From IMG/VR virus record IMGVR_UViG_2711768053_000020, positions 1 to 45,210 of that record: a stretch of 45,210 nt of DNA, one strand, 5' to 3'. Of the stretch, positions 27,296-28,296 are shown in pieces. A program made the translations under genes and the position numbers. The notes beneath the pieces are model-generated. The model worked only from the letters and a program-made list of their open reading frames with translations, was not told where the DNA came from and did no database searches. This DNA is from a virus. Taxonomy: Duplodnaviria; Heunggongvirae; Uroviricota; Caudoviricetes. Within the stretch, counting starts at the first letter, position 1; each line of letters opens with the position of its first letter.

Positions 27296-27322
27296 AAAAG
27301 CCGCCAATTATTTGGCGGCTTT
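27296..27322 (-). terminator. intrinsic terminator downstream of the 27340-28125 moron
   Basis: 8-11-bp GC-rich stem (GCCGCCAA / TTGGCGGC) with 4-nt loop, followed on the - strand by TTTATTT; begins about 18 nt after the moron stop. Confidence 0.6.
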
Positions 27323-27339
27323 CAATAAAAAAGAAAATG

Positions 27340-28125
27340 TTATCGGGGAAGGTGTTGCTTTGGTCCTTCCCAACTGAAGGAATTAAAAACTTTTTGGATT
27401 AAATTTTGCAACTTTGCCAAAGACTCTGTCGAAATATCTACTTCACCATAATAGCCATCAGCCATAGTGCACCCAAATTTAGTTCCGAATAAGTTATTCA
27501 ACATCAATGCCCCCTGAGGTGCAACAACATGAATATTATTTACAGGTTTGAGTTTTATTGGCTTTGGTTCTTTCTCTGCACCAAGCCCACGAACTCTGTC
27601 TTCCATGTGTTGAGCTGAATTCCTTACCTTTCTTAAATCCGGAAAGTCTTTAGAAAGCTGTTCATGCAATTTTTTAATGTTCTCTGGCGCGCCATTTTCT
27701 TTTGAAATTACCTTTAAAAATTTATCAATAGCATCCAAAGCGTAGAGAAATGATTTTGCATGTAAGAAGATCAATCTGTGTTGATGAGCCAACGGATATT
27801 CACCGTTATTCCATTTTTCTCTTTTTAGACGTAGCTCGACCTCTGAAAAAACCTGTTCTGAATATTCATAAGGTTGATAACCAAACTCTTTACGAACCAG
27901 CATTTCCAGTGCTTGTCGTTTCTGTACATCAGCTTGCCATGTCTGAGAAATATTATCGAATTTACTGTTATTCTTAGTTCTTTCCTGTTCGAATAAATTT
28001 AATGCTACATTAGCATCATAAAATGCAGTTTCTAAATGGGATAATAAGTTATTAAACGTCCATTCTAACTCTCTGTTTTCAAACTTAAGATTACTGCCTG
28101 GCTTGATTAACTCAAAAACATACAT
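27340..28125 (-). CDS. hypothetical protein (261 aa), moron in the Q-holin position; single Rx4H (HEPN-like) motif
   Basis: AT-rich ORF between antiterminator Q and the lysis cassette with its own terminator; mostly predicted-helical sequence containing RNSAQH. No family recognised with confidence. Confidence 0.6.
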   Translation of the reverse strand: MYVFELIKPGSNLKFENRELEWTFNNLLSHLETAFYDANVALNLFEQERTKNNSKFDNISQTWQADVQKRQALEMLVRKEFGYQPYEYSEQVFSEVELRLKREKWNNGEYPLAHQHRLIFLHAKSFLYALDAIDKFLKVISKENGAPENIKKLHEQLSKDFPDLRKVRNSAQHMEDRVRGLGAEKEPKPIKLKPVNNIHVVAPQGALMLNNLFGTKFGCTMADGYYGEVDISTESLAKLQNLIQKVFNSFSWEGPKQHLPR

Positions 28126-28267
28126 TTTTTCGACCCCTAGTTGTATGGTCGAATAATTATATTACTAATTAATACCGTCATTCTGTTTTTACACAATAAA
28201 AAAACCGCTCAATGGCGAGTTCTTGAAGGTTATCAACAGCAGATACATAAAGCCCATCGTTGAGAAA

Positions 28268-28296
28268 ATCTTATCCAGATTTTTTGAAAAATGCAA
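28268..28296 (-). promoter_or_regulatory. candidate late promoter (PR'-like) downstream of Q
   Basis: - strand TTGCAT -17 bp- TAAGAT located about 35-60 bp downstream of the Q stop. Confidence 0.35.

Follow-up and report, generated by a model that had tools for sequence, protein, structure and literature searches.

The closest described counterparts of the gene analyzed here are the single-protein HEPN RNases of anti-phage defence. Within this group we compared AbiD/AbiF (which correspond to Pfam Abi_2), AbiU2, AbiV, AbiJ, the Staphylococcus aureus prophage proteins Tha-1 and Tha-2 and the DefensePredictor system DS-11; each is one protein of about 250-340 amino acids carried on prophages, plasmids or islands. 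HEPN domains are defined as four-helix bundles in which an Rx4-6H motif ends helix 3, often with Ex3[KR] upstream, and a polar N, D or H following the arginine is the norm (PMC3710099). Tha-1, a validated prophage HEPN defence protein, carries RNSIMH, and Tha is switched off during the lytic growth of its carrier prophage (PMC11087260). HEPN proteins are also encoded by single-gene integron cassettes of gammaproteobacteria (PDB 3jrt, Vpc_cass2; Anantharaman et al. 2013), and in Vibrio cholerae, where about 18% of unknown integron cassettes protect against phage, the single-gene cassette Esos has only a HEPN-like domain and causes growth arrest or cell death on infection. A further set of counterparts shares a genomic position: the Q-S morons of lambdoid phages (stx1/stx2, the DNA methylase gene orf48 of SfV and the lambda orf-64 region) lie past the late promoter PR' and its terminator tR' and before the holin gene. 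Here we analyze ORF261, an open reading frame (ORF) of 261 amino acids on the minus strand of a 45,210-nt stretch of DNA from a virus of the Caudoviricetes (IMG/VR record IMGVR_UViG_2711768053_000020, positions 1 to 45,210; hereafter the window), which occupies this position.

We interpret ORF261, tentatively and at a little short of an even chance, as an anti-phage effector that works as a single protein and has a HEPN-type RNase centre. This interpretation is based on a conserved motif, on genomic context and on a published machine-learning prediction. A preliminary description of the locus, made from sequence alone, had raised the idea of a defence or abortive-infection function, and both the context of the family, described below, and the prediction lend it support. 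Table S10 of DefensePredictor includes the cluster WP_000289222.1 as a putative/predicted novel defense gene, with a mean log-odds of 10.06 (range 8.4-10.6) relative to a stringent cutoff of 4 (Science 2026, PMC13092281). WP_000289222.1 is the accession of the ORF261 protein in the near-identical locus of Escherichia coli JE86-ST05.

The motif highlighted in the preliminary description, RNSAQH, is present at residues 168-173 of ORF261. By our own estimate, a bare Rx4-6H is expected about once in a protein of this size, and ORF261 contains a second one, RLIFLH at residue 117, which is unconserved. RNSAQH counts as evidence because it lies in the most conserved block of the family, R-[N/D]-[S/T]-x-x-H-x-[E/D]-[D/E]-R, which in ORF261 reads R168-N-S-A-Q-H173-M-E-D-R177. 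Across 150 representatives of the family, conservation reached 97% for R168, 99% for [ND]169, 97% for [ST]170 and 97% for H173, and continued past the histidine with [ED]175 (99%), [DE]176 (95%) and R177 (95%). D131 was conserved in 91% of the representatives, and T220, G224 and W252 were conserved as well. Upstream of the motif, an acidic residue at position 97 ([ED], 71%) and a basic residue at position 101 ([KR], 79%) are separated by three residues within the helix spanning 89-106, and D131 is another candidate for an upstream acidic residue. The motif is kept in a 24%-identical homologue from Deinococcus and in a homologue of 204 amino acids from a Marinitoga phage. The family therefore has an Rx4-6H motif with a polar residue after the arginine, as HEPN proteins do, and ORF261 shares the pattern R-N-x3-H with the RNSIMH of Tha-1.

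An AlphaFold2 (AF2) model of ORF261 had a predicted local distance difference test score (pLDDT) of 90.4 and a predicted template modelling score (pTM) of 0.84. Its helices span residues 18-81, 89-106, 112-142 and 149-178 and are followed by a low-confidence loop and a beta-rich region with one helix. The last of the four is kinked (149-160, 164-172 and 174-178), with the motif at its end. The profile and structure searches for a HEPN fold proposed in the preliminary description thus had a mixed outcome: AF2 gave a confident helical domain, a feature that ORF261 has in common with the single-protein HEPN RNases, but HEPN was not singled out. In the fold search, CheA P1, cytochrome b562 and designed bundles scored the same as HEPN, so that HEPN could not be told apart from the remaining four-helix bundles. 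The HEPN reading itself fared likewise, in that the motif is strongly conserved with N or D after the arginine, but no sequence or profile link to HEPN was found. From its sequence features, a HEPN RNase nature of ORF261 is plausible.

Several observations weigh against this interpretation. Foldseek searches of PDB and BFVD returned nothing below E = 0.05; Pfam searches with the 150 representatives at E <= 1 gave no HEPN match and no recurring family; and neither PADLOC nor NCBIfam yielded a HEPN match for ORF261. Alignment of the family with a 60-sequence Abi_2 alignment, the sole HEPN family profiled, reached a probability of 0.5% in hhalign and lay off the motif. The acidic E-D pair right after the histidine is foreign to HEPN and makes another chemistry possible. 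The defence-homologue fields of the WP_000289222.1 row in Table S10 are empty, and 45% of the cloned DefensePredictor predictions gave phage protection (PMC13092281); a search with motif strings did not find the ORF261 family among the tested or validated proteins of that study. Finally, the predicted place of ORF261 in the late operon would entail strong expression during the lytic growth of its own carrier phage, which would be awkward for a suicide RNase.

Against single Abi_2 or AbiU2 proteins the hhalign probability was 0.2%, and profile searches of PDB sequences with two alignments returned chance matches only, to choline kinase and to an SRP54 domain. The single-protein HEPN RNases have no hidden Markov model or profile similarity to ORF261, and they lack its additional H-x-E-D-R motif tail, yet Abi_2 and AbiU2 genes directly adjoin members of the ORF261 family in some loci. 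The layout of Tha is opposite to that of ORF261, in which the HEPN-like part is N-terminal to central and the beta-rich region C-terminal, and expression of tha-1 comes from the cI (lysogeny) operon, whereas ORF261 lies in the late operon with no cognate inhibitor evident. The integron protein 3jrt, like the ORF261 family in Vibrio a single-gene cassette product, is 12% identical to ORF261 with no sequence-level match, and its 166 residues do not include a counterpart of the beta-rich C-terminal region. Esos was compared with ORF261 by description only, and motif strings of the ORF261 family were not found in the supplement of the V. cholerae integron study. The ORF261 family could correspond to the Bxe_C0808 HEPN family, which occurs in an operon with AbiU2 (Anantharaman et al. 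2013).

The main competing explanation, which we consider improbable though well short of negligible, is that ORF261 is a defence or conflict effector other than a HEPN RNase and that its likeness to Rx4H is coincidental. The R/N/H/E/D/R cluster, D131 and residues of the beta-rich region would then form a different active or ligand-binding site, such as that of a metal-dependent nuclease or phosphodiesterase, or that of a nucleotide-binding sensor. The missing profile-level HEPN signal and the missing Foldseek neighbour for the overall fold both favour this explanation, as do the strong conservation of [ED]175 and [DE]176 directly behind H173 and that of D131, T220, G224 and W252; genomic context and the DefensePredictor score agree with it too, as they point to defence and are silent on chemistry. 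What speaks for a HEPN centre instead is that the exact R-[ND]-x3-H pattern, with its polar second residue, is the HEPN signature, and that in the AF2 model the motif appears to end a helix in an all-helical bundle domain.

To place ORF261 in a family, we searched it against profile and sequence collections. Its sole library match was the uncharacterised family phrog_5322 (E = 4.7e-140; function unknown), and Pfam, NCBIfam and PADLOC returned noise only and assigned no family. A word-indexed search found 375 homologues, every one of them named 'hypothetical', and an exhaustive profile search, clustered at 50% identity, expanded the family to 981 clusters. Of the 150 cluster representatives listed, nearly all are single-domain proteins of 250-280 amino acids that match end to end. 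With 981 conserved clusters, we rejected the possibility that ORF261 is a spurious AT-rich reading frame; the family is shown to consist of real, conserved, solitary proteins of about 260 amino acids without a conserved partner gene. A literature search for WP_000289222 and phrog_5322 returned no paper mentioning either.

Members of the family were present in gamma-, beta- and deltaproteobacteria, in Campylobacterales and in one metagenome-assembled genome of Acidobacteria in our genome scan. In Acinetobacter, Psychrobacter, Proteus and Klebsiella the gene is also found on plasmids, as is the 24%-identical Deinococcus homologue. No isolated phage in the phage collection searched has a full-length copy. 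The Marinitoga phage MPV1, a phage of Thermotogae, encodes the remote homologue of 204 amino acids, MPV1_37 (locus 2411-3025), in its tail module between the tape-measure and tail genes. This protein keeps FPNLRYVRNSIAHFEDR and, as read from its sequence, is without part of the N-terminal helical region; it may represent a minimal version of the family. Pfam searches with the Marinitoga and Deinococcus homologues gave no match. We rejected a role as a virulence toxin like Stx because the family occurs so widely, in environmental bacteria as well as in integrons and plasmids.

Members of the family lie on mobile elements, some of them beside defence genes. In Vibrio parahaemolyticus, the family member is a one-gene integron cassette with an attC-like repeat on either side; the chromosomal array (locus 1-9000) has 14 such repeats, spaced at 480-930 bp, and further contains GNAT acetyltransferases, a glyoxalase and a HEPN_AbiV cassette. 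Many other copies in marine gammaproteobacteria have a GTTRRRY core site about 20 nt 5' of the ATG, at the expected cassette boundary, and the family is probably a one-gene integron cassette there too. Copies in Acinetobacter sit on Rep3 plasmids of 4-12 kb and adjoin an Abi_2 gene and a RelE/HTH toxin-antitoxin pair; a Pseudomonas copy immediately follows a HEPN_AbiU2 gene in an island that carries a primase, with AAA_21/RloB nearby; and an Aeromonas copy adjoins SIR2-like genes in an integrase/VapE island. Several of the 168 nearest neighbours surveyed in 48 genomic loci strongly matched Drt9, CBASS cyclase and effector, DpdJ, BrxH and Shedu. Many of the other nearest neighbours were housekeeping genes, among which the ORF261 homologue is solitary. 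In most of the enterobacterial prophages and high-GC betaproteobacteria examined, the GC content of the gene is 10-16 points under that of its flanks, the deficit in copies from other enterobacterial prophages being 12-14 points. ORF261 is thus a self-contained, horizontally mobile cargo gene. We rejected the existence of a conserved partner or antitoxin, given that the neighbours are heterogeneous, no family recurs among them and AbiU2 is adjacent in one locus only.

This survey also bears on a quite improbable explanation, namely that ORF261 is a toxin of stress dormancy or addiction that benefits the mobile element and is not aimed at phages; it would be an RNase that slows growth or penalises loss of the element. 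Such a role was proposed for integron HEPN cassettes by Anantharaman et al., and members of the ORF261 family on small plasmids and in integron arrays do adjoin toxin-antitoxin genes of the RelE/HTH and PIN/PhdYeFM types. Against this explanation, no antitoxin-like neighbour is conserved: the Vibrio integron cassette contains a single gene, and many copies are solitary chromosomal genes.

We analyzed the locus between antiterminator and lysis genes in detail. ORF261 (27340-28125; 786 bp, ATG start, TAA stop) is, as the preliminary description had it, a gene of an uncharacterised family between Q and the lysis cassette; its minus-strand orientation, on which that description was silent, is that of its neighbours. 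Upstream and outside the cargo lies the gene for the antiterminator Q (28328-29080, minus; 250 amino acids; PF03589, E = 6.8e-54; phrog_127, E = 9.9e-109), whose counterpart in E. coli JE86-ST05 bears an antitermination protein annotation. Downstream, a lambda-family holin gene (26924-27250, minus; PF05106, E = 4.3e-25; phrog_126) opens the lysis cassette, with coordinates that agree with the RefSeq annotation of a JE86-ST05 region 99.9% identical to the window. The AT-richness described earlier was also evident, with a GC content of 0.31-0.39 in 300-nt windows over ORF261 and about 0.5 on both sides.

The preliminary description had located a sigma70-like promoter, TTGCAT-17-TAAGAT, just downstream of Q. 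It is present there, at 28256-28296 on the minus strand (-35 TTGCAT at 28296-28291, a 17-nt spacer, -10 TAAGAT at 28273-28268 and AACGAT at 28261-28256), but as a promoter of the moron's own it did not hold up, since it matches the PR' block of lambda. The window reads TTGCAT-17-TAAGAT-tttctcAACGATGGG, with AACGAT 6 nt past the -10, and lambda just after Q reads TTGACT-17-TAAATT-tgactcAACGATGGG, with equal spacing and AACGAT again after 6 nt; the 12-nt string CTCAACGATGGG is identical between the window and lambda PR'. We take AACGAT to be the -10-like, sigma70-dependent pause element at which Q is loaded in lambda. A minus-strand hairpin with a run of seven T residues follows (28198-28224), and the block formed by the 3' end of Q, the promoter and this hairpin with its T-run is 88-91% identical to SfV, mEp460, Ayreon and Stx2c phages. 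In SfV and Ayreon the homologous hairpin is annotated as a rho-independent terminator. The sequence thus contains what is expected of a Q-dependent PR': behind Q lies a sigma70 promoter, followed first by a pause element resembling a -10 and then by an intrinsic terminator. On the strength of the lambda PR' identity and of the block conserved in SfV and Ayreon, we rejected the assignment of the promoter to the moron; by sequence comparison, TTGCAT-17-TAAGAT is the phage late promoter PR', followed by tR'.

The tR'-like terminator is also the left edge of a cargo slot. In alignments with SfV and Ayreon, homology is lost exactly after the T-run of tR' and returns with the T-run of the terminator in front of the holin gene; between both T-runs SfV and Ayreon carry a DNA methylase gene and small ORFs. 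The flanks were found in 1724 of 5426 complete E. coli genomes and ORF261 in 23 of the 5426, all at least 99.7% identical. These homology breaks and genome counts bear out the earlier placement of a moron in the Q-holin, stx-equivalent position, and the GC content of 0.36 in ORF261 and 0.52 in its flanks is the difference in base composition expected of a moron. ORF261 is a genuine lambdoid moron, and its slot is that of stx in Stx phages. It resembles the known Q-S morons in its foreign base composition, in its terminator-bounded slot and in the variable filling of that slot among phages with the same Q and lysis genes; it differs from stx and the SfV methylase gene, which encode a secreted toxin and a methylase, in that its product is an enzyme-like intracellular protein and in that the gene also travels outside phages.

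The same placement recurs in other enterobacteria. A Q-gene-holin arrangement occurs in four Klebsiella prophages, with two Q families and a holin family different from that of the window, and also in Leclercia and Citrobacter. In one of the Klebsiella prophages a tRNA-Thr (TGT) gene (locus 7706-7781) lies between Q and the ORF261 homologue. Stx phages carry tRNA genes at this position between Q and cargo, which the Klebsiella copy recalls. As it follows PR'-tR' and precedes the holin gene, ORF261 must belong to the late transcript whenever Q is present. This fact, and the recurrence of the position in several enterobacterial prophages, would suit an accessory of the phage late functions, acting in host RNA turnover, in takeover or as a helper in lysis timing and made only from the Q-dependent late transcript. 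We regard this explanation as very unlikely: most family members lie outside phages, in integron cassettes, plasmids and chromosomal islands; no isolated phage in the collection searched has a full-length copy; related phages with the same Q and holin are without ORF261, which so few of the E. coli genomes contain; and the gene has a candidate -10 and a terminator of its own. Least likely is an anti-defence (counter-immunity) protein that disarms host systems on behalf of mobile elements, for although carriage on prophages, plasmids and satellites and the high expression predicted for the lytic cycle would agree with it, a protein of 261 amino acids with enzyme-like conservation suits an effector better than an inhibitor, family members are also found in sedentary integron arrays and alone on chromosomes, and DefensePredictor scores the ORF261 cluster as defence.

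The signals that belong to ORF261 itself lie inside the slot. At its right edge, the strong terminator that the preliminary description had placed directly after the ORF was found at 27323-27296 on the minus strand, where a 12-bp stem, a 4-nt loop and a T-tract fold at -18.7 kcal/mol (z = -5.5; none of 200 shuffled sequences was as stable). Its stem differs from those of SfV and Ayreon, and the T-run and all downstream sequence are common; judged by this comparison, the stem belongs specifically to the cargo. Klebsiella Q-holin copies, 61% identical, likewise end in a strong terminator. At the other end, an AT-rich leader of 72 nt (28126-28197, minus) contains a candidate -10, TATAAT (28161-28156), and a Shine-Dalgarno sequence, AGGGG (28138-28134). 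A promoter scan of the window called no full promoter in this leader, which has a perfect TATAAT without a recognisable -35. In a Leclercia prophage, the tR' hairpin is the same, the leader can be aligned, and the homologue, of 64% identity, is followed by a 10-bp terminator and a holin gene. The Leclercia leader keeps the stretch GTAATATAATT, at a protein identity of only 64%, and there the promoter scan called TAGATA-18-TATAAT with 10 of 12 matches. Conservation in Leclercia makes it plausible that TATAAT marks a candidate promoter of ORF261's own.

Read-through from PR' offers another possible source of transcripts. The tR' hairpin of the window folds at -6.9 kcal/mol. In the alignment, its stem reads CTCGC...GCGG in the window and CCCGC...GCGGG in SfV, Ayreon and Leclercia, the C-to-T change giving a G.U pair. 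This change weakens the tR' stem and could allow more read-through from PR' into ORF261 in the lysogen.

Taken together, these features would fit the following mechanism for a HEPN-type effector. ORF261 sits in an SfV/e14-like E. coli prophage, with the PR'-tR' end of the Q module on one side and the holin gene on the other, and its product would act, alone, as an effector of the abortive-infection type. Two copies of ORF261 would dimerise to form a HEPN-like, metal-independent RNase site. The protein would be held inactive until triggered by an infecting phage, perhaps via the conserved beta-rich C-terminal region, and once activated would cleave RNA and thereby arrest the cell. In the lysogen, low-level expression of ORF261 might come from a TATAAT promoter of its own, from transcripts that pass the weak tR', or from the two combined. 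Once the prophage is induced, Q-modified RNA polymerase would continue through tR', ORF261 and the strong terminator, giving high late transcription. The late-operon placement might mean that ORF261 is tolerated, or even used, in the lytic cycle of the carrier phage.

Past the holin gene, the order on the minus strand is endolysin, Rz/Rz1, an AT-rich DUF2441 ORF, an HNH endonuclease gene and terminase. The AT-rich ORF (25267-25875, minus; 202 amino acids; GC content about 0.38-0.39) is itself cargo-like and separates Rz/Rz1 from the genes for the HNH endonuclease and the small terminase; its matches are to DUF2441 (PF10386, E = 2.6e-10) and to phrog_9842 (function unknown). This ORF had no PADLOC match and was not found in the DefensePredictor tables searched. 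Upstream of Q lie genes for a DUF968/HNHc_6 protein (29094-30089, minus) and a KilA-N protein (30091-30900, minus), and the DUF968-Q pair also precedes the ORF261 homologue in the Leclercia prophage. That the pair is common to the window and Leclercia suggests that the cargo has stayed with this Q module across considerable divergence. Relative to the JE86-ST05 prophage the window is a mosaic, in which positions 22577-34635 are 99.1% identical, the head region is partly alignable (84% identity where aligned) and the lysogeny end is mostly unmatched. Outside the common region, the left end of the window has a match to a group II intron catalytic domain (1045-1122, plus; RF00029, 53.6 bits) and, within 1554-4700, an ORF of 582 amino acids for a KAP-family P-loop NTPase and a umuC-like (IMS family) gene on the opposite strand. 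A search for tRNA genes in the window found none; the JE86-ST05 prophage, by contrast, abuts tRNA-Thr.

Even if it is not defensive, the family is common, conserved and unannotated, without a Pfam entry. It has already been flagged by a machine-learning screen and is a good, not startling, candidate. We think it doubtful that two broader propositions hold jointly: that the family is a new HEPN-like clade in which one protein is a complete immune sensor and effector, and that a cassette of about 0.9 kb travels among integrons, small plasmids, satellites and the lambdoid Q-holin slot. A new activation mechanism or an altered chemistry might lie behind the extended R-N-S-x-x-H-x-E-D-R site and the conserved beta-rich region. 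If the reading of ORF261 as a HEPN-type effector is correct, this compact defence gene would need no partner and would have a very broad range of hosts, from gamma-, beta- and deltaproteobacteria, Campylobacterales and one Acidobacteria genome to a Deinococcus plasmid and a Marinitoga phage. It would also document that a single cassette moves among integrons, plasmids and the lambdoid prophage slot equivalent to that of stx; this slot is relevant to the expression of prophage cargo, which tR' keeps silent in the lysogen and which is strongly transcribed once the prophage is induced. Finally, it could reveal how a solitary RNase-type effector stays silent and is then triggered.

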